64,000 nucleotides of DNA from Bacteroidota bacterium (GCA_051746185.1 JBNJEV010000001.1:88201-152200), one strand, 5' to 3'. Numbered from the stretch's first letter, positions 11,941-44,474 are shown. Translations and numbers: made by a program. Notes: generated by a model from the letters alone, not told the origin.

Positions 11941-12116
11941 CGAGGGTTACGGAAGATTGAGAACACCTGCTCGCGTGTATTTTGCGTGCAGAATGAAAAA
12001 TGAGGGGTCGCGGAATTACCCAGCAACCCTCATCGGGATAGAGGAGGATAGCAAAATTTTATCCAGGCTTAAAAAAGCGGCGTCGGTCTCGTGAGGTCTT
12101 TCTTTAAATAATTGGA

Positions 12117-12845
12117 TCAGCTTCGAACTTCAGCCAGGGCTTCCTGGTACTTATAGTTCGCCACCTGGATATCTTCAAATCCAATGTACTCGTACCACTC
12201 GCGAACCACGTACCACACCATCACATTCTCGATAACTGGATCAAGCAGCTTGATGTAATTGGTGTCTGTGGAAAACTGCGTCATCAAAGATCGTTTCCTC
12301 GTCACCCGTCATCGCGATCCTGTCCATCTGCACATTGCCGTCCTGGACCAGAAATACATTCTTCTGCAGCTGGTACACGAACTGTTCGTATGAGCCGTTC
12401 CGGATAACCGCAATGGCTGGGATGTAATCCAGGTCATACGCCTCCAGCATCGGTTTGTACACGTTGTATGGAAGGTATGTGTACTCCTCCTCAGTGTCCA
12501 CCACAACGTCGAAGATGTAGAACCTACGCCAGGCAACATCCTTGTAGGTGCGCAGACTATGCGGCACCAGCCATTCCCCGAACAGCCTGTAATCCGAATG
12601 CCCGTCCAGGAATGCCCTGAACCTGCGATCAGACGTCACGTACTTATAGAACCCGGCATTGTCGCTCTCCGCCGACAGCTGCCTGCTCCGGGAGCCAGCC
12701 CGTACTTCTCCGTCACTGAACCAGACCGTCCCATTGGTCCAGTCGATCTTGGGGAACACATATGCTTCGCCCAGCTCGATGTTCTGCACGTCATCGGTGC
12801 CGAACCTTTCTCTATATGCTGGTGTTTTTTGAATTCTCTTTCCAT
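12117..12845 (-). pseudogene. Rnl2-like ATP-dependent RNA ligase family gene, split over three reading frames
   Basis: The ATG at 12845 is preceded by AGGAGGACTAATT. A conceptual -1 shift near 12806 gives MEREFKKHQHIEKRFGTDDVQNIELGEAYVFPKIDWTNG. This resembles FKKY..LE plus motif I K-I-D-G-T-N (here W replaces G). Further downstream are LFGEWLVP (motif III-like) and FYIFDVV (motif IIIa-like). A second frame change is needed between 12308 and 12241. Confidence 0.45.
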
Positions 12846-13314
12846 AATTAGTCCTCCTATATATAAGTAATTTATATATTCATTTCATATAAAAAAGCAC
12901 AGATTTTTTTCCGGACTGTGGTTATTTTTCAATTTTTTGATTTGTTCCAAATGATACTTGGGAACATCCGGAAATCCTTGTCAATCAACGATTTTCTAAA
13001 ATGGGATACTAAATATGATTGCTATGTTGATCTGAATATGCCCTACTCACAGATAAAATATAAATTTGGGGTAACAATTTCACTTCCAAACTGATTAAAC
13101 TATGACCAGTCATAGTTTAAAATCTTTCTAAATAACTTAATGTGGATTGATTCAAAATAAGGAGCAGACCAGGCTCTTGACTTGTAATTTATCTTGAAGT
13201 AACTTATTGATGAATTCAACTCAGGATATCCTGTATTCTTCTTATCACTGTATTACCGTACCCCGGGATTCAGGTATTTAATTTGATTTATCAATCACCT
13301 TAAAACTACTTACT

Positions 13315-14728
13315 ATGAAAAAATTATTCTTATAAATTGCTGCTGTATTCTTTACACATTTTAGTCATGCTTACGCAGATCATAATGTTAATGTTAATGG
13401 TGATACAAATGCTTGTGGTGGATCTAGAAGCGAATATACTATTTGGTATGATTTCGGTTTAGCAACAAGAATCTCTTGGCAAGTCACTGGAGGTACTTTC
13501 GATGATGGTTCGACTTATAAAGAGTTTAATAAAGTTGAAGAAGGTCTTGGTATTAACGTAAATTGGAATTACGATCAGACAGGTGTTCAAGCCATAATTA
13601 AAGGAAGGGTTTATTTTTTGTTAGAAGGTTGGGAACCGGATGAAATAGAAGTTGACGTAACTTCAAGAACTGCAATAGATAAATTCATTGGTGAAAAAGA
13701 GAATGGAGACCTCTATATTACTCCAGGGAATAAGACAGAAACAATTTATGCAGATGAACCAGGTGTATCCGACGAGTATAATTGGGAATATACTCCTTAT
13801 GGAGAGCCAACAGAATATACAACTACAAGCATTCCACAACTCGATATAGAACTATCAACTTATGAGGTTGGGTCCATATCAGTATCTGCAACGAATTATG
13901 GTCATTGTGATGGGGAATTAAGCGAAGCAACCGCAAATATGAAAAGGAAATTGGCTAATCCAGTATGGGATTCACCAGTCGATGAATTATGCAATAATAC
14001 TACTGAAATATACTCTTTGGTCTCTGCTATTCCTTATGCAACAATGTACGACTATGAAGCAACAAATGGTGTATTGATTTATGAGCCTAATTCTGGTATG
14101 TATTTCCCGTATATAAATAGCTCAAGTACAAGTATTAAAGTGAAAACTCCTACGGGTATAAATGGTGAAAGCTCAATCTCAGTTACTGCAACGAGATACT
14201 TATGAAATGGAGTTAGGGCAGAGAGAAGCCTTCTATGTAACTGATGGTCCTCAAGCTGATAGCTACTCATGGACTTCATACGGAAGTGTAACTATAACCT
14301 CTTATAATCCATATACTAATTTTGCAATGGTCGAGGCAACATCTACTGGATATGGTTACGTTTGGTGTAGATCAATAAACCAATGCGGAGAAAGCCAGAT
14401 TGCGGAAATCAACGTAAATGTTACACAATCAGGATACCTTGGATTTTTTAAGGTCTACCCAAATCCAGCAGATACTTATGTTGTTCTTGAAGCGGATGAA
14501 ACCAAAATGGATCTTTCCGAAGAATCGGTATCGCAAAAGTTAGCCGCAATGAGTAAAAGCTCAATTATTAGGATAGTTGACAAATTGGGAAATGTACGTC
14601 TATCTGAACCATATCAGGGATTAGTAAAAACTCAGATTGACGTTAGTAAGATTCCGTCGGATCTTTATACGATTCAACTAGTGACTTCGAAAGAGACTTT
14701 TAGCACTAAACTTTTGGTGAGCCATTAG
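13315..14728 (+). pseudogene. T9SS-sorted multi-domain surface protein, disrupted by an in-frame TAA and one frameshift
   Basis: ATG at 13315: MKKLFL-TAA(13333-13335)-IAAVFFTHFSHAYA looks like a signal peptide interrupted at codon 7. The frame stays open to 14205, then continues in the +1 frame (14162-14728). Has repeated Ig/PKD-like modules (..ISVSATN..C.GE.S; ..CRSINQCGESQ). The C-terminus FKVYPNPADTYVVLE...LYTIQLVTSKETFSTKLLVSH is a T9SS C-terminal domain. Confidence 0.6.
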
Positions 14729-14754
14729 TAACGTTTACTAAAGAAAGTGATATA

Positions 14755-14790
14755 AGCCAGCAACATTTTGTTTGTTGCTGGCTTTTTCTT
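14755..14790 (+). terminator. Rho-independent terminator
   Basis: Perfect 11-bp stem AGCCAGCAACA / TGTTGCTGGCT with a 7-nt loop, followed by TTTTTCTT. It lies 27 nt after the stop at 14728. Confidence 0.75.
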
Positions 14791-14901
14791 CTATAAACAA
14801 AGAATCTTCTACATCTATTTGTTTTAATTTTGTAGATATACTCTTTTATGTTAGTAATGGCGTTTTTGATATATTTGAACAATCCCATTTAAGCCTATAC
14901 C

Positions 14902-15552
14902 TTGAAAAAACTATTGATATCCAATATATTAATTGCAATCATAACTATTTCACCTTTCGTGGTTAGTGGTCAAGAACTAATTAATCCGGAAACAAATCTT
15001 GGAATTAATATGGGTGGAAATATTTCCAGAGTGAATTTTGATCCCTCTGTAGATCAAGATTTGAACTTTGGATTTCAGGGAGGAATTACATTCAAGTATG
15101 TCAACATAAAAAACCTAGGCATACAACTTGAAGCAAATTATCTACAGGTGGGATGGAAAGAAAGCCTAGATTCAACAAATCTATATCTTCGAAATCTCAA
15201 TTATCTACAAATTCCCTTCATGACTCATATACAAATTGGCGAAGGGAGAATACGATTTCATATGAATTTAGGATCTTTTGTTTCGTTCCTAATATCTGAT
15301 AGAGAAAGAATAAATTTGCTACCCGGTGTTCAAGAACAAAGTTACTATCGTTTGGGAAATTGGAATAGGGCAGAATATGGGTTTTGTCTCGGAGTAGGGC
15401 TATTAACAAACACATCAATCGGAATTTTTCAAATTGAAGGTAGAATCAACTATACTCTAACCAATGTTTTTAAAAAACCACCAGATTCACCATTTACTGT
15501 ATCACAAAACCAATCTTTTGCAGTGACCTTGTCTTATCTATTAGATTTATAG
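14902..15552 (+). CDS. Outer-membrane beta-barrel protein (PorT/OmpA-barrel-like family), TTG start
   Basis: Signal peptide MKKLLISNILIAIITISPFVVSGQ. Alternating beta-strand pattern with GGITFKY, LEANYLQVGW and a C-terminal aromatic-rich strand. AT-rich codon usage. Confidence 0.65.
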   Translation: MKKLLISNILIAIITISPFVVSGQELINPETNLGINMGGNISRVNFDPSVDQDLNFGFQGGITFKYVNIKNLGIQLEANYLQVGWKESLDSTNLYLRNLNYLQIPFMTHIQIGEGRIRFHMNLGSFVSFLISDRERINLLPGVQEQSYYRLGNWNRAEYGFCLGVGLLTNTSIGIFQIEGRINYTLTNVFKKPPDSPFTVSQNQSFAVTLSYLLDL

Positions 15553-15628
15553 ATGAAATAAACACAATGTTCAGAAGTAAGCGTTTGTTCTGTGGCAGGA
15601 TGAAGCCAGATACCTTATGTTTGTTTTT

Positions 15629-15838
15629 TTAAATTACCCTCCTTTCTGTACATAGTTCAAACCCACTGCATTTGACTGCATCGCCCTCGGGGTCAAATGT
15701 GACCTCATAGGATAGAATCCCGCTACTGAACTGGTATGTAATGTCAGTGATAATTCCCGGAGGGGACGCGGGTAACGCATGGAATACCCTGTCCCCTATT
15801 TGGAATATTGGCTTGACTGTAACCATCTCTGGATTCAT
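15629..15838 (-). CDS. Hypothetical 69-aa protein, translationally coupled to the upstream RHH gene
   Basis: ATGA overlap with the preceding ORF. Beta-rich small protein (IFQIGDRVFH...GIITDI...YEVTFDPEGD). No family assigned with confidence. Confidence 0.45.
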   Translation of the reverse strand: MNPEMVTVKPIFQIGDRVFHALPASPPGIITDITYQFSSGILSYEVTFDPEGDAVKCSGFELCTERRVI

Positions 15839-16227
15839 GACGATGTCTGCAATTTGTGACCGAACCGCATCCTGTACGCATAGCTGTCCATGATCAGCGT
15901 TTCGACCAGGTTATTCACACTCCTGTTCTGTCTCTGAGCTTCCGCCTCCAGAAATCCTCCCAGTTCGTCTTGGAACCTGAAGGTCTTCGTATAATGCCTC
16001 ATGTGTGCCATCTTCTGTCCCTCCTTACCATTTGTCCGAATGAAAGTTACCGCCCCCGCGTTGTACATGAATAATGCTGCAAAAAAGTCCGCATCTCCAG
16101 CTGTGAAGTGCTGGATCATCAGGATCACATCCTCTCCGGTACTCTCAAGCAGGTCCAGCCTTATGGTGCTGACCGTGACCTCCCCGGATCCCGGATCATC
16201 AAAAGCCTCCACCGTGGGATTGTACAC
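15835..16227 (-). CDS. Ribbon-helix-helix (CopG/Arc-like) DNA-binding protein; probable true start at 16011
   Basis: The C-terminal 58 aa, MAHMRHYTKTFRFQDELGGFLEAEAQRQNRSVNNLVETLIMDSY, form a beta-strand plus two helices typical of RHH. The ATG at 16011 is preceded by AAGGAGG with an 8-nt spacer. The longer ORF starts with GTG at 16227 and its N-terminal 72 aa are unrecognised. Confidence 0.6.
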   Translation of the reverse strand: MYNPTVEAFDDPGSGEVTVSTIRLDLLESTGEDVILMIQHFTAGDADFFAALFMYNAGAVTFIRTNGKEGQKMAHMRHYTKTFRFQDELGGFLEAEAQRQNRSVNNLVETLIMDSYAYRMRFGHKLQTSS

Positions 16228-16959
16228 TTCCTGGATAATGAATGTGCCCTCAAGGTCCCCGCCGCAAGCAGCGGGGAACCGAGCCTGCGAGCTCGGCCAA
16301 TTTGCTCGCTTAATTCAAAGAAATCCACCGCTATCAGTGATCATGAGAAGAAAAATTAAGGTACCCCGTTCCGTAAAAATCGGAACTAACAAATTCATTA
16401 CTTCTTAACAATTTAGTTAAGTTTCCTTTACTCGGACAATTTTTTCTTGCCGCTATATCTATCTTATTGATAGCAATTTACGAAACAAGGAAAAAGAAAG
16501 ACAGATATCTAAAAACTAACAATATTAAGAAGTCTCAACAGAATTGTTACGTGCAAAAATCACAAAATGACTATACCAGTTTTTTCGCCTGAGCGATTGG
16601 ATGCGATGTCCAACATTGCACAAAGGGTAATCGGAAGCGGAATAGACTCTCCTCGAAGCTTGCTTCGAGGAATCTTTAGCAGCCAATCATTGATCCCGTT
16701 AAGGTATATTATCCTTTATTTCTCGCTAACTCCGCAGCAAAGCTGTGGGGAACCGAAGCGGAGCTTGACAAAGTCAATGCCCTCGCCGGGATTCCGATTG
16801 TCGAGGCTTTTTTGATACCTTTGAATACCCTCATGACAAGGACGATGAAAAAAATTGCCGGAATCACATCACTGGTTGTGTTGTCCCTGGCAATCCTGAT
16901 CCTGATACACGTTGTTGAAGAACCTGAAAGATTTTGCAGTGAGTTGAAAAAATCCATCC

Positions 16960-19173
16960 ATGAAGATATACCTGGATCATAATGCCACCACGCCGGTGGA
17001 CGGGGAAGTGGCTGAGGCCATGCAACCCTATTTAAAGGAATACTTCGGGAACCCGTCCAGTTCCCACAGCTTCGGGTCGGAAGCAAAAAAAGCGGTCGAG
17101 CATGCCCGCAGGCAGGTTGCGGAATCCATCCATTGCCGGCCCGGGGAGATTATCTTTACCAGCGGGGGGACCGAATCGAACAATTATGCCATCAAGGGAT
17201 TCGCCTATGCGAATGAGCACAGTGGAAACCACCTGATCATCTCGGCCATTGAGCATCCATCGGTGACCGAAGTATGCCATTACCTGGAGAAAAAAGGGTT
17301 CCGCGTTTCCGTCATCCCTGTGGATGAGTCCGGTATCATCCGGCTGGAACAGCTGGAGGAAGCCATCACCCCGCAGACCATCCTGATCTCGGTCATGCAT
17401 GCCAACAATGAGATCGGGACCATCCAGCCCATCCGGGAGATCACCGAAATTGCCCGGAAACACCGGATCGCCGTTCACACCGACGCGGCCCAGTCGCCGG
17501 GAAAAATCCCTGTCAATGTAGAGGAACTTGGCGTGGACCTGCTCTCCATTGCCGGGCACAAACTGTATGCACCCAAAGGGATCGGGGCCCTGTATATCCG
17601 TGACGGAATGGAGCTCGAAAAACTCATTCACGGAGCCGACCATGAACAGAACAAGCGTGCGGGCACGGAAAATGTGCTGGAGATCGTCGGACTGGGGAAA
17701 GCCTGTGAGATCGCCCGCCGGGACCTGGACAGGCATATGGCGCACATGAAAAAGATGAGGGATTTGCTTCACGATCTTCTCCAGGAGAAGCTGCAGGGGA
17801 TCAAAATGAACGGCCATCCGAAGATGCGGCTTCCCAACACACTGAGCCTGAGTTTTCACAGAATCGAGGCCAATGTCCTGCTGAATGAACTAAAAATGAA
17901 GGGCATTGCCGCATCTGCCGGGGCTGCATGCCACACCGGTTCAGTGGATGTTTCTCCGGTACTGAGCGCGATCGGTCTGGAAGATGATTTTGCCATGGGG
18001 ACCATCCGCTTTTCAGCGGGCAGGTATACCACGGAAGAGGAAATAAACCGTGCTGCAGGGATCATCATAGATTCGGTGAACCGGTTAAGGCCCTCCGGAA
18101 AGGATCAACCCGGAGAGTCAATACAGTCCCCGGACAGCATCCAGCTCACAAAATACACAAAGGGACTTGGGTGTGCCTGTAAACTGCGACCCCAGGACCT
18201 GGAAAAGGTACTGAAGAAGATGCCGGTTTCCTCCGACCCCCGTGTTCTGATCGATGCCAGGCATTCAGACGATGCGGCGGTATACAGGATCAGTGAGACA
18301 ACAGCCCTTGTCCAGACAGTCGATTTCTTCACCCCTATTGTGGACAGTCCGTATGATTTCGGAGCCATCGCGGCGGCCAATGCCCTGAGCGATATCTATG
18401 CCATGGGGGCCAGACCTATTTTTGCGCTGAATATTGTTGGCTTTGCTCCGGGCAGACTTCCCATGAGCGTTCTGGAAGAAATACTCAGGGGAGCCAACGA
18501 CAAGGCAAAAGAAGCGGGGATCAGCATCCTGGGCGGACACACCATTGACGATCCCGAACCAAAATACGGGATGGTCGTGACCGGCACGGTCCACCCCGGT
18601 AAGATCCGGGCCAACTCAGCAGCCAGGGAAAATGAGGCGATCATCCTCACCAAGCCCATCGGGACCGGGATCATGACCACTGCCCTGAAACGCGGACTGA
18701 TCGATCATAAAACCAGCACTGAAGTGATCCGGTCCATGTCGGAATTAAATCAAAAGGCAGCAGAGATCATCGGAAAATATTCCCCGGGGGCCTGCACCGA
18801 TGTTACCGGCTTCGGACTGATCGGCCATATGAGCGAAATATCGGCTGCCAGCGGGGTGGATATGGAACTGTTTGCGGGACGGGTCCCTGTCTTTGAGGAG
18901 GTAATGGATTTTGCGGCAGCCGGTGTGATCCCCGGAGGATCCACCAACAATTTGGATTATTTTTCAAAATATGTTGACTGGGAATACGGAATATCCGCCC
19001 TTACCCGGATCGTTCTCAATGATGCACAGACCTCCGGAGGATTATTGTGTACGGTTCCTGAAAATGAAAAAGAAACCCTTCTGGAGGAACTACAATCTGC
19101 GGGTATCCGTTTTGCCACTCATATCGGCAATTGCCTGAAAAGAGGCGCGGGGAAGATCCAGGTAAAAAAATAG
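16960..19173 (+). CDS. selD: Bifunctional cysteine desulfurase/selenocysteine lyase-like (NifS) plus selenide, water dikinase (SelD) fusion
   Basis: 737 aa. The N-terminal approx. 385 aa carry class V aminotransferase motifs (LDHNATTP, SGGTESNN, SIAGHKLYAPKGIGALYIR, SAGAACHTGS). A linker follows, then SelD (KGLGCACKLRPQDL = GCxCK active site; DDAAVY; GGHTIDD; TKPIGTG). Confidence 0.85.
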   Translation: MKIYLDHNATTPVDGEVAEAMQPYLKEYFGNPSSSHSFGSEAKKAVEHARRQVAESIHCRPGEIIFTSGGTESNNYAIKGFAYANEHSGNHLIISAIEHPSVTEVCHYLEKKGFRVSVIPVDESGIIRLEQLEEAITPQTILISVMHANNEIGTIQPIREITEIARKHRIAVHTDAAQSPGKIPVNVEELGVDLLSIAGHKLYAPKGIGALYIRDGMELEKLIHGADHEQNKRAGTENVLEIVGLGKACEIARRDLDRHMAHMKKMRDLLHDLLQEKLQGIKMNGHPKMRLPNTLSLSFHRIEANVLLNELKMKGIAASAGAACHTGSVDVSPVLSAIGLEDDFAMGTIRFSAGRYTTEEEINRAAGIIIDSVNRLRPSGKDQPGESIQSPDSIQLTKYTKGLGCACKLRPQDLEKVLKKMPVSSDPRVLIDARHSDDAAVYRISETTALVQTVDFFTPIVDSPYDFGAIAAANALSDIYAMGARPIFALNIVGFAPGRLPMSVLEEILRGANDKAKEAGISILGGHTIDDPEPKYGMVVTGTVHPGKIRANSAARENEAIILTKPIGTGIMTTALKRGLIDHKTSTEVIRSMSELNQKAAEIIGKYSPGACTDVTGFGLIGHMSEISAASGVDMELFAGRVPVFEEVMDFAAAGVIPGGSTNNLDYFSKYVDWEYGISALTRIVLNDAQTSGGLLCTVPENEKETLLEELQSAGIRFATHIGNCLKRGAGKIQVKK

Positions 19174-19708: not shown

Positions 19709-20572
19709 TTAAATCCCTTCCAGCCATCCGATCCACTCTTCGAAGCCTTCGCCTGTACGGGCCGAAAGCTCAAAGAACCTCAGATCCGGGTTCACCCGGA
19801 GTGCATATTCCCTGATCCTGCCCGGATCGGATTCCAGGTGCGGCAGCAGATCGATCTTATTGATGATGCAGATATCTGATGTCCTGAACATATCGGGATA
19901 TTTCAGGGGCTTGTCATCCCCTTCGGTCACACTCATGGTCACGATCCGGTATTCCTCCCCCAGGTCGAACAGGGCGGGGCAGACCAGGTTGCCCACATTT
20001 TCGATCATCAGAAAAGCTTTTTCTTCCACCTCCAGCTTTTTGACCGCCTCATGGACCATCCCTGCATCCAGGTGACAGCCGCTGCCGGTATTCACCTGTA
20101 TCACAGGCACTCCGGTTTTATCGATCCGCTCTGCATCCAGCATGGATTGCTGATCGCCAATAATGATATAGAACGAATTCTTCTCCCTGAGCCGGGTGAT
20201 GGTCTGATGCAAAAGGGTGGTCTTTCCCGAACCGGGAGAGCTCACCCAGTTAAAGGCCCTGATCCCGCGGGCTTCAAAATATCCCCTGTTCCTTTCCGCC
20301 ATCAGGTTGTTCTGTCCCAGAATGTCTTCCCCCACCTGTAATTCGGTGGTTTGATGACCGTGATTATGCGTAGGTCCGTGGGAATGGTCATGGCCGTGGG
20401 AATGTCTCTGGGTATGGGAATCTCCGTGGGTGTGGGGATGTTCATGGTCGTGACCGTGTCCGTGGGAATGTTCGTGAGGATGTCCGTGGTCATGGATATG
20501 GCCGTGCTCTTCTCCGGGAAATCGGATGAGATGTTTTTCACCCGGCTGTCCGCATCCGCATGTATCACACAT
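19709..20572 (-). CDS. hypB: Hydrogenase nickel-incorporation GTPase HypB with His-rich N-terminal region
   Basis: MCDTCGCG high-affinity metal motif, a long H-x-H-rich stretch, P-loop SSPGSGKTTLL, and ENVGNLVCPA. Confidence 0.92.
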   Translation of the reverse strand: MCDTCGCGQPGEKHLIRFPGEEHGHIHDHGHPHEHSHGHGHDHEHPHTHGDSHTQRHSHGHDHSHGPTHNHGHQTTELQVGEDILGQNNLMAERNRGYFEARGIRAFNWVSSPGSGKTTLLHQTITRLREKNSFYIIIGDQQSMLDAERIDKTGVPVIQVNTGSGCHLDAGMVHEAVKKLEVEEKAFLMIENVGNLVCPALFDLGEEYRIVTMSVTEGDDKPLKYPDMFRTSDICIINKIDLLPHLESDPGRIREYALRVNPDLRFFELSARTGEGFEEWIGWLEGI

Positions 20573-20583
20573 ATGATCAGTAT

Positions 20584-20928
20584 TTAAGATTCAACAATCA
20601 GTGATTTGATTCTCAGTTCCCTTCCGGATTTGAATTCAAAGCGGTAGGATCCGCACCCCGGACAGGGCGAAACGGGCCCTTCCAGCGGAAAAACCTTGCC
20701 GCAATCCAGACATTGCCCGCTCGCCTTCACATGCTCGATGTCAAATTCTGCTTTCTCCAGCAAGGTATTCTGTGTACAGGTCTCCAGCGCATAATTCATG
20801 GCATCCAGGATCACTCCCGACAACTCCCCGATCTCCAGGTTTACCCTGAGGACCCTGTGCTTTCGTTCCCTGCGGGCATAATCCTCAGCGATCGAAACAA
20901 TATTTTTTGCGATCGAAAATTCGTGCAT
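20584..20928 (-). CDS. hypA: Hydrogenase nickel insertion protein HypA
   Basis: MHEFSIA N-terminus and CLDCG...CPGCGS zinc motif, 114 aa. Confidence 0.92.
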   Translation of the reverse strand: MHEFSIAKNIVSIAEDYARRERKHRVLRVNLEIGELSGVILDAMNYALETCTQNTLLEKAEFDIEHVKASGQCLDCGKVFPLEGPVSPCPGCGSYRFEFKSGRELRIKSLIVES

Positions 20929-20934
20929 TTTTAT

Positions 20935-22020
20935 TCAACAAATTCTGGGGAGCTGCTCCCCGGTCAACATATGGACAATCCGACTGCCGCCTGTGGCAGT
21001 TTCCAGGATCACCCTGCCCCGGTCCGATCCTGTGATCTCCCCGATAATGGCCGCATGCTTACCCTCCGGGTGGTGATGCATGACCTCCAGCACATCACGG
21101 CTCACGGCGGGATCCACCACCAGGAGCACCTTCCCTTCATTGGGCACATAGAGCGGATCAAAACCGAACATCTCACACATTCCCAGTACTTCATCCCTCA
21201 ACGGCAGGTCCGGTTCACGTATATGTACCCCGAACGGACGCCCTTCCACCAATTCACAAAGTGTTGTTGCCACCCCTCCCCGGGTGGGATCACGCATGAA
21301 CCGGACCCGGCCGGACTGTTCAGGAACCCGGCCGGACTGTTCAGGAACCCGGTCGGACCGTTCAGGAACCCGGCCGGACCGTTCCAGGATCGTGGCGATC
21401 AATCCGTTCAAAGGAGCACAGTCACTCTTCAAGCCGGTTTTCATGGGAAAATCTTTTCGCTGGCTCAATATTGCCATTCCATGATCTCCGATATGCCCGC
21501 TGATAATGATATGATCCCCGACCTTCACCAGACCGGCTGAAGCAATATGGGCATATTTTTCGGATAATATCCCCAATCCTGCGGTATTGATGAATAACTT
21601 ATCGCATTTCCCCCTGTTCACAACTTTTGTATCACCGGTCACAATCTGAACCCCCGCCCGGCTGGCCGTTTCTGCCATGGAACGCACAACCGATCCAAGC
21701 ACATCTACCGGCAACCCCTCTTCAAGGATAAAACCCGCACTGATAAACCGGGGCAGGGCACCTGTGACTGCCAGGTCATTGACGGTCCCGCAGATGGCCA
21801 GTTTCCCTATATCGCCTCCCGGGAAGAAAAGGGGATCGACCACATAGGAATCCGTGGTAAAGGATACCCTGCCCTCTTTCATCTCCAATACGGCGGCATC
21901 TCCCATGGCTTCCAGCCACGGATTTCCCAGATGCTGAATGAATACCCGGCGGATCAGCTCATGCATTTTTTTTCCGCCGCTGCCATGGTCCAATGATATA
22001 TGATCATCCATCGTTTCCAT
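20935..22020 (-). CDS. hypE: Hydrogenase maturation protein HypE (carries an in-frame heptad-repeat insertion)
   Basis: AIR-synthase-like fold motifs, RDPTRGGVATTLCE, and a C-terminal ...LPRIC with the terminal Cys. Confidence 0.9.
   Translation of the reverse strand: METMDDHISLDHGSGGKKMHELIRRVFIQHLGNPWLEAMGDAAVLEMKEGRVSFTTDSYVVDPLFFPGGDIGKLAICGTVNDLAVTGALPRFISAGFILEEGLPVDVLGSVVRSMAETASRAGVQIVTGDTKVVNRGKCDKLFINTAGLGILSEKYAHIASAGLVKVGDHIIISGHIGDHGMAILSQRKDFPMKTGLKSDCAPLNGLIATILERSGRVPERSDRVPEQSGRVPEQSGRVRFMRDPTRGGVATTLCELVEGRPFGVHIREPDLPLRDEVLGMCEMFGFDPLYVPNEGKVLLVVDPAVSRDVLEVMHHHPEGKHAAIIGEITGSDRGRVILETATGGSRIVHMLTGEQLPRIC
21306..21389. repeat. Tandem 21-bp repeat, 4 copies, in frame inside hypE
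   Basis: cccggccggactgttcaggaa x2, then cccggtcggaccgttcaggaa, then cccggccggaccgttccagga. On the coding strand this gives SGRVPER/SDRVPEQ/SGRVPEQ/SGRV heptads. Confidence 0.9.
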
Positions 22021-23089
22021 ACCTGAATGCCGCCTGGCAACTTCCCTCTGCAGATACCATGCATGCCCCCACGGGCATCTCGGGTCTGCATACCTTTCTG
22101 AACAATTTGCAATCGGCCGGCTCTGAAATACCTCTCAAAATATCACCGCAGATGCACCCCGGGGGCTCCCGCGATGGTTCTATATCCACCCGGATCATCC
22201 CGGCTGCATCCAGGGAAGTGAATTCATCCCGCAACATCAACCCGCTCTTTTTCACCATTCCCAGACCCCGCCAGGAGGTATCTTCAGGCTGAAATACCCG
22301 GTTCATGATTTCCCGGGCCCTGGGATTACCATTCTTCTTTACCGCCCTTTTATAGGCATTCTCCACTCGGGGTTTGCGTTCGCGGACCTGCTTCAATAAC
22401 TGAAGGACCGCCAGCAGGATATCGGCCGGCTCGAATCCGGCGATCACGCAGCCTGTGTCATATCTCTCCGGGATGGACCGGTATATTTCTTCGCCGGTGA
22501 TCACACTCACATGCCCGGGACACAGGTACCCGTCAATGGAGAAGTCCTCACTGACCAGTAATTCCAGGGCAGGAGGCATCACTTTATGGGCTGAAAGGAT
22601 CAGGAAGTTCTGAAGCCGTTCCTGCACGGCCTGCAGAATGCCCGCTGCCGTTGAAGGTGCGGTTGTTTCAAATCCGATGGCCAGAAAAATGACCCTTTGC
22701 CCGGGATTCTGACGGGCAAGGGCAAGGGCTTCCGTAATGGAATATACCACCCGCACATCGGAGCCTGCCGCCCTGGCTTCCTGCAGGGTGGAAGTGGAAC
22801 CCGGCACGCGCAACAGGTCGCCGAAGGTGGTAATAATGATCTTTTCCAGGGAGGCCAGGGCAATGGCATGATCTATATAACCGACCGGTGTTACACAAAC
22901 CGGACATCCGGGACCGGAGATGAGCCTGACGCCCGGGGGCAGGACCGACCTGATATCATGCCGGTGTATGGCCATGGTATGCGTGCCGCACACTTCCATA
23001 AAGGTAACTTTCAGTTCGCCATATAAGGCGATCTCCCTCGCCAGACCATTGATCAGAGCCCTGTCCCGGTATTCACTGATATACTTCAT
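22004..23089 (-). CDS. hypD: Hydrogenase maturation protein HypD
   Basis: Motifs CGTHT-like (EVCGTHTMA), GPGCPVCVTP, FETTAP, and C-terminal Cys motifs. Confidence 0.92.
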   Translation of the reverse strand: MKYISEYRDRALINGLAREIALYGELKVTFMEVCGTHTMAIHRHDIRSVLPPGVRLISGPGCPVCVTPVGYIDHAIALASLEKIIITTFGDLLRVPGSTSTLQEARAAGSDVRVVYSITEALALARQNPGQRVIFLAIGFETTAPSTAAGILQAVQERLQNFLILSAHKVMPPALELLVSEDFSIDGYLCPGHVSVITGEEIYRSIPERYDTGCVIAGFEPADILLAVLQLLKQVRERKPRVENAYKRAVKKNGNPRAREIMNRVFQPEDTSWRGLGMVKKSGLMLRDEFTSLDAAGMIRVDIEPSREPPGCICGDILRGISEPADCKLFRKVCRPEMPVGACMVSAEGSCQAAFRYGNDG

Positions 23090-23310
23090 TTTTTTCCGGT
23101 CCGGTTCATTTCCCTGAGTAAACTGAGGGTTTCTTCTGCTTCTTCCGGATCGATGACCTGAATGGCAAACCCGGCATGCAGGAGCACATAATCGCCTTCC
23201 CGGACACCATCCAGTAACTGAATGCCTGCCTTATATGTGGTACCTGAAACAGATACAACCGCTGTATCGTTTTGTACCGAAATCACTTTTGCCGGAATAC
23301 TTAAACACAT
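23086..23310 (-). CDS. hypC: Hydrogenase assembly chaperone HypC
   Basis: MCLSIPAKV N-terminus (Cys2), 74 aa. ATGA overlap with hypD. Confidence 0.92.
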   Translation of the reverse strand: MCLSIPAKVISVQNDTAVVSVSGTTYKAGIQLLDGVREGDYVLLHAGFAIQVIDPEEAEETLSLLREMNRTGKK

Positions 23311-25625
23311 ATTTTATCTCTTTGGCTGGCTCCAATCATCAGTTGTCCCAGCGCAATCCCTCCGTCGTTCATCGGTACCTGCTCGTGGCTGAAGACCTGA
23401 AAACCCTTCCTTCGCAACAGATCTTCCGTGCGGCTCAGCAGGAATTTGTTCTGGAAAGTCCCTCCGGATAAAACCACCCGTCTGATGCCTGTTTTATCCC
23501 CCATCCTGAGGGCTATTTCGAGAAAGACCGCCACCAGGGTATAATGGAAACGCGCTGAGATCACCGAGGCAGCGGTTCCATTCTGTATGTCCGAGACGAT
23601 CTGTCGGATCATACCATTGAAATTCAAAGGATTGGATGCATTTATCACATACTTTTCACTGCATTGATGATCGATCAGCGATTCCAGCCTCATCGGTGCC
23701 TCCGCCTCGAACCGGTTCACAGAACAAATATTCAGCAAGGCACTGACCGCATCGAAAAGACGACCTGCACTGGAGGTCAGGCATGTATTGATTTGCTGAT
23801 CGATGGCATATAAAACGGCATCTGCCTTCTTTTTATCCAGTTGCTCTGTAAAGGGTATTTTAAGATCAAAGAGTTTCTTTCCGAATGTCCGGTACAGATA
23901 CACCAGTGCCATCCTCCAGGGTTCCTCAACGGCTTTGTCCATCCCCGGCAGGGGAATATAGTCAAAATGCGCATACCGTACAAAATTCTTCCGGTTGCAG
24001 ATCATAAACTCACCGCCCCATATCTGATGATCCGGACCGTAGCCTGTTCCGTCCATGCTGATCCCGATCACTTCCCCTTTAAGACCATGTTCGGCCATGC
24101 AGGAGACAATATGTGCATGATGATGCTGGGTCCGGATGACAGGAAGTCTCAATTCACGGGCCACGCGGGTGGAGAAATAATCCGGATGCAGGTCACAAAC
24201 CACCATCTCCGGTGTAAAACGGTACAATTCCCGGAAAACTGACAGTGCTTCGCGGTAAAAACGTTCTGTTTCCGGGTTTCTCAGATCTCCGATATGCTGG
24301 CTCATGATCGCCTGGTGATCCTTCCCGATACAGAAACAATTTTTCAGTTCCCCACCGGTCGCCAGAATTCCTTCCACATCCACATCCAGATAAACGGGCT
24401 GTGGAACATAGCCCCGGGACCTCCTGAGGGGTCTTTCCTTCCGGTTCACCACAGCCACCACCGAATCATCGATCCGGTTGCTTATCTCCCTGTCATACGA
24501 TAAGATGCCGTCAGCAACGCAGTCCAGTTTCTGCTTTGCCTGCAAATCATCCCTGATGATGGGCTCTTCTGAAAGATTCCCGCTGGTTACAACCAGTGCC
24601 GGTGTCCGGATCTGGTCAAAAAGCATATAATGCACCGGCATATAAGGAAGAAAAGCACCCACGGTGTTCAATCCGCTGTTGACCGGCCGGGGAAACCCTT
24701 TCTTGAGATGCAGCAATACAATGGGCCTTCTCCAGCTCCGAACGGCATTCTCCTCTTCTTCCGTGCAAAACGCATACTCCCTGAGCTGTTCCAGGTCCCT
24801 GAACATCACTGCAAATGGTTTGGCATCACGTCCTTTTCTCGTCCGTAATCGCTGAACCGCCGCATCATCCAGGGCATCACAGGCCAGGAAATATCCCCCG
24901 ATACCCTTCACGGCAAGTATTTTTCCCTGATCGATCAGGTCTGCAGCATTTTCGATGATGGCTTTGATCTTCTTGATTTCCTTCCCGCCCGGGATCCGCA
25001 GACGGTACTGGGGTCCGCATGAGTTACATGCCACAGGCTGAGCATGGAAACGCCTGCTTGCGGGATCATTGTATTCCTGCAGGCAGGTATCGCACATGTC
25101 GTAAGCCGACATGGTGGTATTTTTCCTGTCATAGGGGATGGAACGGATGATCGAGAACCGGGGGCCACAATGGGTGCAATTGATCAATGGATAGTCATGG
25201 CGGTGCTCCTGGTTGCGCATATCCGTAAGACACTCTTCGCAAACAGCGATATCGGGCCCGACCTCGGTAATGCCCCCGGATAGATCCCGGCTCTCCCTGA
25301 TGGTGAATGAATCGAATCTTTCGGGATTCACCTGCTCACTGGATATGGATTCTATGGATGCCGCCCAGGGTTTCCGGCGGCTGATCTCCCGGATAAAATT
25401 TTTCAGCTGCCGCCCGGTGCCGGAGGCTTTGATCAAAACACCCCGGTTATTGTTTTCAACCCACCCCGTTATTGCGTATTCACGGGCAATCCTGTAGATG
25501 AAAGGACGGAAACCCACGCCCTGCACCCGGCCCCTGATATGAATCACGCAGACCTGATCCTCGCCGGCCAGGGAGGTGGGTCTGAGTTTCAAACCCGTAT
25601 CATATTCCGATGAATGGTTATTCAT
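23301..25625 (-). CDS. hypF: Carbamoyltransferase HypF
   Basis: 774 aa. Has an acylphosphatase-like N-terminus (GRVQGVGFRPF), two CxxC...CxxC zinc-finger pairs, and YrdC-like and Kae1-like domains. Confidence 0.92.
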   Translation of the reverse strand: MNNHSSEYDTGLKLRPTSLAGEDQVCVIHIRGRVQGVGFRPFIYRIAREYAITGWVENNNRGVLIKASGTGRQLKNFIREISRRKPWAASIESISSEQVNPERFDSFTIRESRDLSGGITEVGPDIAVCEECLTDMRNQEHRHDYPLINCTHCGPRFSIIRSIPYDRKNTTMSAYDMCDTCLQEYNDPASRRFHAQPVACNSCGPQYRLRIPGGKEIKKIKAIIENAADLIDQGKILAVKGIGGYFLACDALDDAAVQRLRTRKGRDAKPFAVMFRDLEQLREYAFCTEEEENAVRSWRRPIVLLHLKKGFPRPVNSGLNTVGAFLPYMPVHYMLFDQIRTPALVVTSGNLSEEPIIRDDLQAKQKLDCVADGILSYDREISNRIDDSVVAVVNRKERPLRRSRGYVPQPVYLDVDVEGILATGGELKNCFCIGKDHQAIMSQHIGDLRNPETERFYREALSVFRELYRFTPEMVVCDLHPDYFSTRVARELRLPVIRTQHHHAHIVSCMAEHGLKGEVIGISMDGTGYGPDHQIWGGEFMICNRKNFVRYAHFDYIPLPGMDKAVEEPWRMALVYLYRTFGKKLFDLKIPFTEQLDKKKADAVLYAIDQQINTCLTSSAGRLFDAVSALLNICSVNRFEAEAPMRLESLIDHQCSEKYVINASNPLNFNGMIRQIVSDIQNGTAASVISARFHYTLVAVFLEIALRMGDKTGIRRVVLSGGTFQNKFLLSRTEDLLRRKGFQVFSHEQVPMNDGGIALGQLMIGASQRDKICV

Positions 25626-26260
25626 CCGCTTGTCTCCAAAACAATATTTTCAATATTGGCATAATGGATCACTCCCTCGAGCACATTACAAAGATTAATA
25701 TTATCGATCACAATTTCCGTGGGAGCCTTCAGAATGATCGGGGCAAAGTTCATGATCCCTTTAATGCCACACTCTATCAACTGATTGCATACATCCTGCG
25801 CGGAAATTGCGGGAACTGCGATAATGGCCACCTTGATCCCGTTTTCGTTAATGAAACGGGGCATCATTTCCATGGGAAGAACCAGCACATCACCACTCTT
25901 CTTGTATTTTGACGGATCGATGTCAAAGGCAGCTACAATATACTTTCTTTTTTCCATAAATCCGCATTCATACAGAGCCAGCGCCGTTCCGATGTTTCCC
26001 ATGCCAATGAGGATCACGTTTTCCTTCTCATTTTTTATAAAAATCCGGTTCAGATCCTCCAGTAATTCTTCTACAGAATATCCCCCTTTCTTCTTTCCCC
26101 GGATCTGAAACTTTGAGAAATCCTTCCGGACCTGCTCTGGGGTCACGCCGGCCTCCTTTCCCAGGTTATAAGAATATATTTTCTCAAATCCCATTTCCCT
26201 GAGGCGCACCAGGCACATCCTGTACTGGAGCAACCGTTTAATGCTGTTTTCAACTATCAT
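25622..26260 (-). CDS. rex: Redox-sensing transcriptional repressor Rex
   Basis: 212 aa. Winged-helix N-terminus (IKRLLQYRMCL), Rossmann motif ILIGMGNIGTAL, and C-terminal swap helix. The stop overlaps the hypF ATG (ATGA). Confidence 0.88.
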   Translation of the reverse strand: MIVENSIKRLLQYRMCLVRLREMGFEKIYSYNLGKEAGVTPEQVRKDFSKFQIRGKKKGGYSVEELLEDLNRIFIKNEKENVILIGMGNIGTALALYECGFMEKRKYIVAAFDIDPSKYKKSGDVLVLPMEMMPRFINENGIKVAIIAVPAISAQDVCNQLIECGIKGIMNFAPIILKAPTEIVIDNINLCNVLEGVIHYANIENIVLETSG

Positions 26261-26490
26261 TTATTGTACTTTTTTTCCCATTTTTTGCCGGAAGGCTCAA
26301 AGTATTTTTATGTTCTCAAACATGTTATCGTGATTTCAGAATTATAATAAAAATATATAACGCTCTAAAATACCAGTCATTACAGGTGTTTTATAAGGAC
26401 AGATATATTTTTCCGCTTTTTTTTATATGGCTAATTTATTATAATACTTGACACGTGTAAAGTTGAATCATACTTTTATTTTGCATTTAA

Positions 26491-26506
26491 TGTGAAAATG
26501 ATAACA
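26491..26506. promoter_or_regulatory. Candidate Rex operator (TGTGAA-N4-ATAACA) abutting the start codon at 26509
   Basis: TGTGAAAATGATAACA. One half-site equals the Rex consensus half TGTGAA; the other, TGTTAT, resembles the TTGTTAA variant. The same 16-bp pattern recurs twice at 44244-44303. Confidence 0.45.
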
Positions 26507-26508
26507 TA

Positions 26509-27516
26509 ATGCATCCGGACAGCTTTCTTATTTCCAAACAGAACTGGGATAGATTCCTGAAAGAAATCATCAATGAAAATGATTTGTGCGCACCTCTGGA
26601 ATCAGAAGGAAATAATGAGTACCAGCTCATACAGGAGGAAAAAGATATATCCCGCATTGTTTACAACCATCCCAAACCCACCTCACCATTAAAAACATTT
26701 TTTCTTCCTGTCAAGGAGAATGTAACCATCGATCACAGCAACCAGAAATTACGGATCATCCTGGGAGTGCCATCCTGTGATCTGGCCGGCCTTGGTTTGC
26801 TGGATGAAATGTATCTGCAGGAACCCCTTGTGGATCCTTATTATCAATCCAGGAGGGAAAACACATTGCTGATCGGAACGGATTGTCATTCCACACTGGA
26901 GCACTGTCACTGCACCTCTTACGGGATCAATCCTTTCCCTGAAGTAAATTTCGATCTGGGACTGGTCCGGTTGGACGATCAATTCTATGTGTATACCGGT
27001 TCGGAGAAAGGAAAAGCATTCATTAACCGGTACCGTGATGCAGGTTTTTTCTCACCTGTAAACGGGGAGGCGGAGAAAAAAGCAGATGCCTATCGTGAAC
27101 GGACCATAGAGGAACTGAAAGAAAAGAACAGCGGGTTGCCGGGATATGAGAAAACCGGCGAACTGATCAGGGAATCGGGCGAAGAGATCTGGAAGAAGTA
27201 TTCACGAACCTGTGTATCCTGCGGTGCCTGTGCCACCATATGCCCGACCTGTACCTGTTTTCTGCTCATTGACAGGACCGGATTTGAAAAGGTCAGGAAT
27301 CTGGATGCCTGTCAGTACCCTGGTTTTGAACGGGTAGCTGCCGGTGAGGACCCTCTTGGGGAACGGCATATTCGTTTCCGGAACCGCTACCTGTGCAAAT
27401 ATGTATGGAAACCTCAGGGCTTTGAATCCATTGCATGCACAGGTTGTGGCAGATGCATTGAGGCCTGTATAGGAAAGATCAACAAAAACGAGTTATTTGA
27501 AGAGTTATCTGCTTAA
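26509..27516 (+). CDS. Fe-S subunit resembling sulfhydrogenase beta (HydB) / anaerobic sulfite reductase AsrA
   Basis: 335 aa with CVSCGACATICPTCTCF and CTGCGRCIEAC cluster motifs. First gene of the hydrogenase operon. Confidence 0.7.
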   Translation: MHPDSFLISKQNWDRFLKEIINENDLCAPLESEGNNEYQLIQEEKDISRIVYNHPKPTSPLKTFFLPVKENVTIDHSNQKLRIILGVPSCDLAGLGLLDEMYLQEPLVDPYYQSRRENTLLIGTDCHSTLEHCHCTSYGINPFPEVNFDLGLVRLDDQFYVYTGSEKGKAFINRYRDAGFFSPVNGEAEKKADAYRERTIEELKEKNSGLPGYEKTGELIRESGEEIWKKYSRTCVSCGACATICPTCTCFLLIDRTGFEKVRNLDACQYPGFERVAAGEDPLGERHIRFRNRYLCKYVWKPQGFESIACTGCGRCIEACIGKINKNELFEELSA

Positions 27517-40723: not shown

Positions 40724-42523
40724 CTAATACCGTTCCCTCCCGGTATAATGGGTGTGCAACAGTTCGTGGGATTTATGGCCAAGCGGCTCACCCAGGAAAT
40801 CTTTGTAAATGGCAATGATCTCAGGATTTTCATGAGATTTCCGGTACTCCAGCGACATATCCTCTTCATAGATGGCCTCGGCCCGTTTCCGGCGAATCTC
40901 GTCATTGGTGGGAATGGGCTGACCGCCCCCGCCCAGGCATCCGCCCGGACAGGCCATGATCTCGATGAAATGTACATCCATCTCACCGTTCTTCACACTG
41001 TTCATCAGTGTTCTGGCATTCACCAGGCCATGGGCCACCGCACATTTCAGTTCCACGCCTTCCAGGAAATTCCACTCTTCCTTGCAGTCTTCGATCTTCA
41101 CCGAGGCAAGTCTCACTCCCTCCATCCCCCGGACCGGCATAATGTTCAGATCTTCGAAGGGGACTTCCCTGCCGGTAACAATTTCGTAGGCCGTCCTCAG
41201 GGCTGCTTCCATTACGCCTCCGGTGGCTCCGAAAATGACCGCCGCACCCGAGGAAACCCCCATGATGCTGTCGTAGGTATCATCCTTTAATTTGTTGAAA
41301 TCCACACCGGCCTGCCTGATCATTCTGGCCAGCTCCCTGGTGGTCAGCACGATATCAACATCCTTGTAGCCGCTTGAACGCATCTCCGGACGGTTGGCCT
41401 CATACTTTTTGGCAGTACAGGGCATGATGGAAACGCTTACCACATTCTTCGGATCCAGATCCCGTACCTTGGAGTAATAGGTTTTGGCCAGCGCCCCGAA
41501 CATCTGCTGGGGTGATTTGCAGGTGGAGACATTGTCCAGATATTCGGGGAAAGTATGTTCTATGAATTTAACCCAGCCCGGCGAACAGGAAGTGGTCATG
41601 GGCAGCTTAACCGAAGGATCTTTTTCCACAAGGGTTTTTTTCAGCCGGGTGAGCAATTCGGTCCCTTCTTCCATAATGGTTAAATCGGCTGTGAAATCCG
41701 TATCCAGTACGGAATCAAATCCGAGCCGTTTCAGGGCCGCCACCATCTTGCCGGTGACCCGGTCCCCTGCATCCAGCCCCAGCTCTTCTCCCAGTCCGAC
41801 CCTCACTGCAGGAGCGGTCTGAACCACCACGTGTTTTTCAGGATCCAGAACGGCATCCCATACCTCATCTATGTAAGTCCGTTCCACCAGTGCACCGGTG
41901 GGACATCGGTTCACACACTGTCCGCAGTTGGTGCAGATCACCTCTGCCATGGACAAATTCTCGAAGGTGCTGATCTTCTGTTCATCTCCTTTAAAGGCAA
42001 CGGTAAGCGCATTTACACCCTGCAATTGTTCACAGGTCCGCACACACCTCTGGCAACGGATGCATTTGCTGTCATCCTTCTGGATGGAAGGAGAAAACAT
42101 GTCGATCGTGTAGTCTTTGGGATCTACCAGATCCAGCAGGATATGATCTCCCACACAGAATTCATTCGACAGGTCCTGCAATTCACACTTTCCGTTCTTG
42201 TAACACTTGGTACAATCGGCCCTGTGTTCGGAAAGAAGCAGCTCGATCACATGTTTCCTGGCCGCCCTTACTTTCAGTGAATTGGTCAGGATCTGCATCC
42301 CTTCACTGACAGGGGCGGCGCAGGCTGCAACAAGTGACTTTCCTCCCAGCTGCTCAACCACACAGACCCTGCAATTTCCTGCCACACACAGGTCATCATG
42401 GTGACACAGCGTTGGAATTCGGAAATTCAAATTTTTCGCGGCCTCCAGGATGGTTGTTCCTTCCGGGACCTTGGTCAGAAGACCATTGATCGACAGATTT
42501 ACCATATGATTATTTTCCTTCAT
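40724..42523 (-). CDS. hydA: [FeFe]-hydrogenase catalytic subunit (HydA/HndD-like)
   Basis: N-terminal 2Fe-2S ferredoxin fold, a His-ligated cluster region (HRADCTKC), and two CxxCxxCxxxCP motifs. H-cluster motifs are TSCSPGW, MPCTAKKYEA and EIMACPGGCLGGGGQP. Confidence 0.9.
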   Translation of the reverse strand: MKENNHMVNLSINGLLTKVPEGTTILEAAKNLNFRIPTLCHHDDLCVAGNCRVCVVEQLGGKSLVAACAAPVSEGMQILTNSLKVRAARKHVIELLLSEHRADCTKCYKNGKCELQDLSNEFCVGDHILLDLVDPKDYTIDMFSPSIQKDDSKCIRCQRCVRTCEQLQGVNALTVAFKGDEQKISTFENLSMAEVICTNCGQCVNRCPTGALVERTYIDEVWDAVLDPEKHVVVQTAPAVRVGLGEELGLDAGDRVTGKMVAALKRLGFDSVLDTDFTADLTIMEEGTELLTRLKKTLVEKDPSVKLPMTTSCSPGWVKFIEHTFPEYLDNVSTCKSPQQMFGALAKTYYSKVRDLDPKNVVSVSIMPCTAKKYEANRPEMRSSGYKDVDIVLTTRELARMIRQAGVDFNKLKDDTYDSIMGVSSGAAVIFGATGGVMEAALRTAYEIVTGREVPFEDLNIMPVRGMEGVRLASVKIEDCKEEWNFLEGVELKCAVAHGLVNARTLMNSVKNGEMDVHFIEIMACPGGCLGGGGQPIPTNDEIRRKRAEAIYEEDMSLEYRKSHENPEIIAIYKDFLGEPLGHKSHELLHTHYTGRERY

Positions 42524-42538
42524 TTATGCAACCTTTCA

Positions 42539-43699: not shown

Positions 43700-43719
43700 C
43701 AGTTCCTTTTTTGATGCTT

Positions 43720-44190
43720 TTACTTCTTGATGTATTCACGTAGTATTTCGGTTACCTTTTCCGATGTTAATTCAGTGTAAGGTGTATCATTGATAAGCAT
43801 TGCCGGTGCTTTGTGGCACCATCCGATGCAATTGGTCTCAAGAAGACTGAATTTCTTATCCGGCGAAGTTTCTCCGACCTGTATTTTCAACGTATCTTCA
43901 ATGGTGGTAAGCACGTCATTCTTACCCTTCATGGCACAGGAAATGGTCTTACAGATCCGGATCACATATTTTCCCCTCACCTCGGTATCAAGGAAGGAAT
44001 AGAATGTCGCGGTGCCAAATACATCTGCAGCCGATATGTCCAGTTCTCTCGCCACATCCACCATGTCCTGCTTGCTCAGATAGCGGTTGTGAACGACAAG
44101 GTCCTGCAATATGGGCAGCAGGCTTTCCCTGGTCCTGCCATGTTTGTTGGCAAGCTCTCTGACTAGTTCGTTTTCAATCATGGTCTCCAT
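43720..44190 (-). CDS. NuoE-like [2Fe-2S] thioredoxin-fold subunit (HydC/HndA)
   Basis: 156 aa. The spacing ICKTISCAMKG ... CIGWCHKAP fits the NuoE 2Fe-2S motif. Confidence 0.88.
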   Translation of the reverse strand: METMIENELVRELANKHGRTRESLLPILQDLVVHNRYLSKQDMVDVARELDISAADVFGTATFYSFLDTEVRGKYVIRICKTISCAMKGKNDVLTTIEDTLKIQVGETSPDKKFSLLETNCIGWCHKAPAMLINDTPYTELTSEKVTEILREYIKK

Positions 44191-44243
44191 GAATACTCAA
44201 ATTTTTTATATGTGATTGAAATAATGCTAGTTATATTTCTTTC

Positions 44244-44303
44244 TGTTATTTCTTTCACAAAATGAAGCGGTAAAAATAGCTTTTTGATGTGAACCATATA
44301 ACA
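44244..44303. promoter_or_regulatory. Two candidate Rex operators upstream of the [FeFe]-hydrogenase operon
   Basis: TGTTATTTCTTTCACA (44244-44259) and TGTGAACCATATAACA (44288-44303). Both fit TGTGAA-N4-ATAACA, the same pattern as 26491-26506. Confidence 0.45.
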
Positions 44304-44455: not shown

Positions 44456-44474
44456 ATATATTTGTGGTAAGATC

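Follow-up and report, generated by a model that had tools for sequence, protein, structure and literature searches.

According to our analysis, the 18-mer ATGTGAAAATGATAACAT at positions 26490-26507 is very probably an operator for the repressor Rex, which is encoded divergently from it at 25622-26260. This predicted operator scores 16.5 bits, and a single base separates it from the ATG at 26509, the first codon of an operon for an NAD(P)-linked, Mbh-type membrane [NiFe]-hydrogenase. Rex bound to this box would cover the short leader in its entirety as well as the predicted transcription start, and would thereby prevent initiation by RNA polymerase; a rise in NADH would take Rex off the DNA and allow the operon to be expressed. 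Two further boxes, 18 kb away, may exert a similar control over an NADH-dependent [FeFe]-hydrogenase, which would place both H2-evolving enzymes under one redox signal. In the ancestral arrangement, a mirror-image box at the start codon of rex would have served autoregulation and the control of the hyp maturation genes; in the present genome this box has decayed. By analogy with characterized Rex systems we infer that Rex binds here and responds to NADH, where transcription starts, and in which direction the operon is regulated. Throughout the text, the window is the whole 64-kb stretch of DNA that was analysed.

Genomic Context of the Predicted Operator

The spacer between rex on the minus strand and the hydrogenase operon on the plus strand occupies positions 26261-26508. 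Its description in the earlier note as a 248-bp AT-rich region was exact in its coordinates, and the GC content is 25.8%, compared to 48.6% for the whole window. The rex gene (25622-26260, minus strand, 212 aa; Pfam PF06971 Put_DNA-bind_N and PF02629 CoA_binding) heads a rex-hypFCDEAB operon. The genes for [NiFe]-hydrogenase maturation, hypF, hypC, hypD, hypE, hypA and hypB, lie 3' of rex on the same strand (19709-25625), with a 4-nt overlap between the end of rex and hypF; they were assigned on the basis of the Pfam families HypF domains, HupF_HypC, HypD, AIRS/AIRS_C, HypA and cobW/HypB. Just past the end of the hyp operon, the plus strand encodes a 737-aa fusion (16960-19173) of a class-V aminotransferase (NifS-like) with AIRS/AIRS_C domains (SelD/HypE-like). 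A T9SS sorting domain is encoded elsewhere in the window, and the host is a member of the Bacteroidales, represented by a MAG.

The predicted Rex-regulated membrane hydrogenase operon extends on the plus strand from 26509 to approximately 38802, as judged from Pfam. Its first products are an AsrA-like Fe-S protein, an AsrB-like FAD/NAD-binding protein and a ferredoxin; it also encodes NuoH-, NuoB- and NuoC-like subunits, the [NiFe] large subunit, Mrp/Mnh-type antiporter subunits and a HycI-like protease. The nearest solved structure to the large subunit is the Mbh alpha subunit of P. furiosus (6cfw_L, 4e-79), and both CxxC Ni-Fe motifs are intact; the enzyme is of the Mbh type within group 4. 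The operon thus joins AsrA/AsrB-like subunits (sulfhydrogenase beta/gamma-like) and a ferredoxin to an Mbh-type hydrogenase with a full Mrp-like antiporter set; a comparable AsrAB-Mbh-Mrp-type cluster in Saganbacteria has been termed enigmatic (PMC6349859).

The ATG at 26509 opens an ORF of 335 aa. More than 100 homologues of its product have lengths of 328-362 aa, mostly 332-340 aa, homologues of 333-337 aa among them, and Met1 is invariant among 27 aligned sequences; because of this agreement in length and the invariance of the first residue, we regard the start codon as credible. No Shine-Dalgarno sequence was found before this ATG or before the neighbouring genes.

The Rex Protein

All eight matches of the 25622-26260 product among the solved structures are Rex proteins, the best being that of T. 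maritima (5zz5, 5.5e-34), and 3wg9, 3ikt, 2vt2 and 3keo are further examples. The residues of T. maritima Rex that contact DNA and NAD+ have been listed (PMC8836258), and an alignment allowed them to be traced in the present protein. The base-reading Arg48 and Lys49 are kept as R45 and K46, and the other DNA contacts Arg12, Ser33, Gln46, Ser52, Gly58 and Tyr64 are kept as R9, S30, Q43, S49, G55 and Y61, whereas Thr replaces Lys43 and Lys replaces Gly61. The NAD(H) pocket, including the acidic residue for recognition of the adenine ribose and the Tyr for stacking against nicotinamide, is also kept, with GMGNIG as the GxGxxG motif and with N89, I90, A93, Y97, D113 and K118 aligning with Asn92, Ile93, Ala96, Tyr100, Asp115 and Lys120 of T. 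maritima Rex. Judged by its sequence, the Rex protein is intact and comprises the N-terminal winged helix and the C-terminal Rossmann NAD(H) domain.

The Box and Its Significance in the Window

The 16-mer TGTGAAAATGATAACA, reported in the earlier note at 26491-26506 ahead of the ATG at 26509, is present exactly at these positions, within the 18-mer ATGTGAAAATGATAACAT. When compared to the published Rex consensus TTGTGAANNNNTTCACAA (PMC5317091; PMC2883068), the 18-mer agrees at 11 of the 14 specified positions; from the strict consensus it departs at positions 1, 12, 14 and 18. Both TGTnA cores are intact, and the A at position 14 corresponds to the known TTGTTAA-type variant. Strict consensus searches of the 64-kb window, with three mismatches allowed, gave no enrichment over shuffled sequences and missed the 26490 site, because it has four mismatches to TTGTGAANNNNTTCACAA. 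The core TGTKA-N6-TMACA matched three times in the 64 kb (0.26 expected), a number reached in none of 100 shuffles. The three matches start at 26491, 44244 and 44288, each has the form TGTGAA-N4-ATAACA, and all of them are intergenic and located within the promoters of the two hydrogenase operons of the window.

We also scanned the window with a weight matrix; the 47 unique sites behind it came from other genomes, and those of the window itself were excluded. The three highest scores fell at 44287 (16.8 bits), 26490 (16.5 bits) and 44243 (15.8 bits), and the next best match had 11.3 bits. Shuffled windows yield 0.085 matches of at least 16.5 bits each, and their best scores reach 17.1 bits at the 95th percentile; by itself, the 26490 site is therefore marginal on a window-wide scale. 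We judge it to be beyond chance because the three top matches sit in two hydrogenase promoters and because its position is conserved across dozens of genomes. Matches of about 11 bits at 36425, 13140 and 16606 lie in a gene or in a low-GC stretch, without obvious redox genes, and were treated as chance occurrences. The stretch with the latter two, at about 12000-16700, has a GC content of 0.37-0.41 (about 0.49 otherwise) and few long ORFs.

Paired Boxes at the [FeFe]-Hydrogenase Promoter

The second predicted Rex target, hydC-hydB-hydA (40724-44190, minus strand), encodes NuoE-like, NuoF-like and [FeFe]-hydrogenase subunits, with the Pfam domains 2Fe-2S_thioredx, Complex1_51K and NADH_4Fe-4S, and Fe_hyd_lg_C and Fe_hyd_SSU, respectively. 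A trimeric [FeFe]-hydrogenase of this NuoE/NuoF type is a classical Rex target. Two boxes on the minus strand sit in the 284-bp spacer (44191-44474) upstream of the operon: the proximal one, TTGTGAAAGAAATAACAG (44243-44260; 15.8-16.3 bits), starts 70 nt before the ATG of hydC, and the distal one, TTGTTATATGGTTCACAT (44287-44304; 16.8 bits, the best in the window), lies 44 bp upstream of the proximal one.

An independent set of promoters was obtained by aligning 14 HydC homologues and scanning metagenome contigs, which yielded 75 non-redundant upstream regions. With the matrix from the [NiFe] loci, boxes of at least 12 bits were found in 74 of these 75 regions. The typical metagenomic hydC promoter carries two boxes 44 bp apart, TTGTTATnnnnTTCACAT and then TTGTGAAnnnnATAACAA, starting at about -116 and -72; the pair in the window, at -114 and -70, matches this geometry. 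The TGTGAA-N4-ATAACA form of the 26490 site also recurs at the metagenomic hydC promoters. The reading of TGTTAT as a Rex half-site, put forward in the earlier note, is thus borne out, as ATAACA/TGTTAT proved to be recurrent and conserved in the Rex boxes of Bacteroidales (74/75 in the hydC set), and the doubt over the second half-site of TGTGAAAATGATAACA is therefore resolved.

Some other features of this spacer were observed. At 44243-44304, TTGTTAT forms the outer half-sites and TTGTGAA the inner ones, which makes the 62-bp unit itself a larger palindrome; this geometry is found in most of the 75 loci. Between the two boxes there is a -7-like element, TAttTTTA. At 44420-44455, four alternating hexamers are arranged with a 10-bp pitch (AACTAA-caat-TTAGTT-gcat-AACTAA-gttt-TTAGTT), directly upstream of a gene for a BlaI-type repressor (44475-44870), and a -7 box, TAtaTTTG, follows the array. 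The gene for the repressor is followed by two genes for BlaR1(M56)-TonB_C fusions (44863-46089 and 46199-47515). The hexamer array is probably the operator of the BlaI-type repressor.

Conservation Across Related [NiFe]-Hydrogenase Loci

Related loci were collected by alignment of the 335-aa protein, with one genome per species scanned, which gave 80 loci; their spacers were delimited by the boundaries of the alignments. With the Rex of the window as a tblastn query, a divergent rex was found 160-270 bp upstream of the hydrogenase operon in 50 of the 72 assessable loci. In nearly all of these, a Rex-type palindrome (e.g., tatATGTGAATCTTCTCACATaa) is present within the 75 nt before the start codon and ends 2-10 nt from the ATG. 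A Gibbs sampler run without a prior motif on 47 non-redundant rex/hydrogenase spacers returned (T/A)TGTGAA-N4-TTCACA(A/T), the same motif as the published consensus TTGTGAANNNNTTCACAA for Rex. It occupied two fixed places: on the hydrogenase side the 18-mer stops 2-3 nt short of the ATG, and on the rex side a mirror-image 18-mer lies 2 nt before the ATG. The claim of the earlier note that a divergent rex/hydrogenase region carries a Rex-like operator at the hydrogenase start codon has, as a prediction, strong comparative support.

In the contigs of the closest relatives, which encode proteins of 79% and 76% identity, the middle of the spacer could not be aligned, and the putative promoter together with the box is almost invariant, AATACTTGAC...GTAAAG.TG.AT..TA.TTTTATTT..GCATTTAATGTGAAAAT..TAACAT. 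In these two relatives the hydrogenase-side box scores 20.5 and 21.7 bits, respectively. Across 634 kb of related loci, 91 of the 104 matches of at least 15 bits fall in upstream regions, which make up 2.5% of the sequence; this count is circular, because the matrix was derived from those sites, but it still bounds the background rate. More generally, the matrix and some of the counts draw on shared data.

The motif alone cannot name the protein that binds it, since the core is common to CRP-type sites. The consensus core of the latter, TGTGA-N6-TCACA, has an identical dyad and identical spacing; the information of our motif is concentrated in TGTGA and TCACA, and the Rex-specific positions A7/T12 contribute only about 0.4 bits. 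Bacteroidota encode many Crp/Fnr-type proteins. A regulator of the CRP/FNR family in place of Rex is nevertheless an unlikely explanation of the palindrome, as its occurrence follows that of rex. With a threshold of 12 bits and a distance of up to 60 nt from the hydrogenase ATG, 46 of 51 rex-adjacent loci have a box vs 3 of 16 loci in which rex is not adjacent (Fisher p = 1.4e-7, a statistic that ignores phylogeny, many of the loci being closely related). The box also precedes rex itself in about 40 genomes, which is the classic autoregulatory layout, and in L075 (unclassified bacterium) and L077 (Latescibacterota), which belong to other lineages, it stands between the hydrogenase operon and a rex gene located upstream in tandem. 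The association is with rex and NADH-linked hydrogenases, not with crp or catabolic operons, and both targets in the window are typical members of Rex regulons (PMC5317091, PMC8836258). All these observations argue for Rex as the cognate protein.

Promoter, Leader and Mode of Repression

The primary sigma factor of Bacteroidota recognizes TTTG near -33 and TAnnTTTG near -7, some 19-21 nt apart (PMC7366714). Upstream of the box, the plus strand carries a -33-like element, CTTGACA (26447-26453, with TTG at 26448-26450), which is invariant in the closest relatives, and a -7-like element of the TAnnTTTG type, TACTTTTA (26471-26478), located 20 nt past the TTG; the box begins 11 nt further on. In this putative promoter, TTG-N20-TACTTTTA (26448-26478), the last base of the -7 element is A rather than G and the -33 element reads TTG(AC). 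Of 44 unique orthologous regions, 42 have the composite TTG-N19-21-TAnnTTT directly ahead of the box, vs 7.8% of shuffled sequences; the spacing between its two parts is 20 nt in 35 regions, and the box follows after 0-2 nt in 34 and after 9-13 nt in 8. A sigma-70 promoter scan gave consensus matches on the minus strand only; such a scan is not relevant to Bacteroidota.

These elements would place the transcription start at approximately 26482-26489, with a leader of about 21-26 nt and the box at about +3 to +24. Such a leader agrees with data on B. thetaiotaomicron, in which the commonest 5' UTR has 23 nt and no Shine-Dalgarno sequence (PMC7366714). The contact between the box and the start codon may be explained in the same way: because leaders in Bacteroidota are short and lack a Shine-Dalgarno sequence, an operator in the start region must reach the ATG. 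The earlier note had considered that an operator so close to the start codon would act as a roadblock or occlude the 5' UTR. The putative conserved promoter, however, lies 0-13 nt upstream of the box. As the box extends over the predicted transcription start and the initial transcribed region, classical occlusion of the promoter is favoured over a distant, downstream roadblock.

The location of the block also suggests explanations at the RNA level. The sequence might be conserved as an initial transcribed region and an A-rich, Shine-Dalgarno-free translation start, with no repressor involved: there are A residues at -3, -6 and -11 to -14, positions reportedly enriched in mRNAs of Bacteroidota (PMC7366714), and the region as RNA is unusually unstructured. 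We consider this very improbable, given that the inverted repeat is likewise conserved ahead of hydC, where about 50 and 95 nt keep it clear of the start codon, and in mirror orientation before rex; selection for A-richness would not preserve dyad symmetry or the match to the Rex consensus. An inverted repeat directly before an ATG could likewise form a leader hairpin that masks the start codon, but the RNA of 26484-26540 has a minimum free energy of -1.7 kcal/mol, 199 of 200 shuffles fold more strongly (z = +1.6), and no credible Rfam match was obtained for the leader, the only one being to a miRNA with an E-value of 0.79. The probability of such a hairpin is, in our opinion, negligible.

Decay of the Rex-Side Box

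At the other end of the spacer, 3 nt from the start codon of rex, lies a decayed Rex box, TTGTACTTTTTTTCCCAT (26264-26281; reverse complement ATGGGAAAAAAAGTACAA), with a score of 6.6 bits. In most relatives the corresponding position, 2 nt from the ATG of rex, is occupied by a box of 20-25 bits. On the rex strand, both cores are substituted (TGTGA to TGGGA and TCACA to GTACA). The 79%-identity relative (L163) keeps TTGTGTATTTTTTCACAT at the rex-side position, with 20.5 bits, and in another locus (L161) the box has gone by deletion. The autoregulation of rex-hyp has therefore probably been weakened or lost in this sub-lineage, with control of the structural operon kept. The earlier note had pointed to a weaker relative of the operator on this side, at 26322-26340; the sequence ATGTTATCGTGATTTCAGA is indeed present there, but its likeness to a Rex site is no greater than chance, as it scores -4 bits, is either wrongly spaced or poor in its second half, and is unconserved in the closest relatives.

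The decay of the rex-side box shows that operators of this lineage can be lost, and the hydrogenase-side box could accordingly be a former operator that now binds Rex poorly, leaving the operon effectively constitutive. Its 16.5 bits are below the values of most orthologues (about 20-25 bits), and its neighbour is down to 6.6 bits. However, both TGTnA cores of the hydrogenase-side box are intact, the [FeFe] promoters normally have TGTGAA-N4-ATAACA as their conserved form, and the three closest lineages hold the box nearly constant within a spacer that has diverged around it. We therefore rate the loss of function as improbable, slightly more so than the binding of a CRP/FNR-family regulator, and retain ATGTGAAAATGATAACAT as a predicted working operator.

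Comparison With Known Rex Systems and Implications

Repression of hydrogenase and maturation genes by Rex is established in Firmicutes and Thermotoga and predicted in Caldithrix (PMC5317091, PMC8836258). No description of a Rex regulon in Bacteroidota (including Bacteroides, Porphyromonas and Prevotella) was found in the literature searched, and an earlier prediction is possible. The Rex operators of Firmicutes, Actinobacteria and Thermotogae, such as TTGTGAAW4TTCACAA in S. aureus and that of TM0201 in T. maritima, resemble the one predicted here in the 18-bp dyad, the TGTGA/TCACA cores and the 4-nt centre. They also share a cognate Rex in which a winged helix is combined with a Rossmann NAD(H) domain, the NADH-reoxidising targets, including hydrogenases, and rex autoregulation (ancestral in our case). 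The differences are that the host is a member of the Bacteroidales, that one half-site has the variant form TGTTAT/ATAACA, and that the box lies on a predicted promoter of the sigma-ABfr type (-33/-7), fills most of a very short leader and abuts the start codon.

Caldithrix abyssi, which also belongs to the FCB superphylum, has rex linked to an NADH-dependent [FeFe]-hydrogenase (rex-hydABC) with a candidate box, cTGTGAATCAATTCACAt, upstream (PMC5317091). In that organism rex is co-oriented with the hydrogenase genes and there is one box, 38 bp upstream (PMC5317091), whereas here rex heads the hyp operon and diverges from a membrane [NiFe] operon, and the [FeFe] operon is 18 kb off and has two boxes. 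In Caldicellulosiruptor bescii and Thermoanaerobacterium, Rex likewise ties hydrogenase and maturation genes to the NADH/NAD+ ratio (PMC6391272, PMC5886521). Those cases are supported by gel shifts and deletions, in Firmicutes with sigma-70 promoters, whereas the system described here is known from sequence alone.

Taken further, the data could point to a Bacteroidales Rex regulon of its own design, with ancestral mirror operators next to both start codons, that of rex-hyp and that of the hydrogenase operon, with a pair of boxes 44 bp apart on the [FeFe] promoter, and with the AsrAB-Mbh-Mrp complex as an NADH-oxidising, ion-gradient-coupled, H2-evolving enzyme. We put forward this combined reading tentatively, as one that is somewhat more likely to prove incorrect in part than to hold as a whole. 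If it is true, Rex control and the FAD/NAD-binding subunit would mark the AsrAB-Mbh-Mrp complex as a biochemically uncharacterised route of NADH-to-H2 disposal.

Rex has so far been studied mainly in Gram-positive bacteria and Thermotoga. Should Rex bind to the predicted sites, the NADH/NAD+ ratio would directly switch H2 production in a widespread group of anaerobic Bacteroidales. Binding would also give a functional hint to the electron donor of the membrane hydrogenase, as Rex-controlled operons are typically NADH-consuming and the FAD/NAD-binding module comes first in this one. The by-products of the analysis may be of more interest, namely the conserved mirror-operator layout, the 44-bp paired [FeFe] boxes and the predicted Rex control of the AsrAB-Mbh-Mrp hydrogenase.

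The matrix and the conserved promoter layout may serve for the prediction of Rex regulons across Bacteroidota metagenomes. Two of the related loci carry extra Rex-like boxes of 15-18 bits in the same place (L034:3003-3020 and L060:3001-3018), outside the rex/hydrogenase spacer and within the rex-matching region, about 165 nt in from its far end; these may represent a further target or an internal site.
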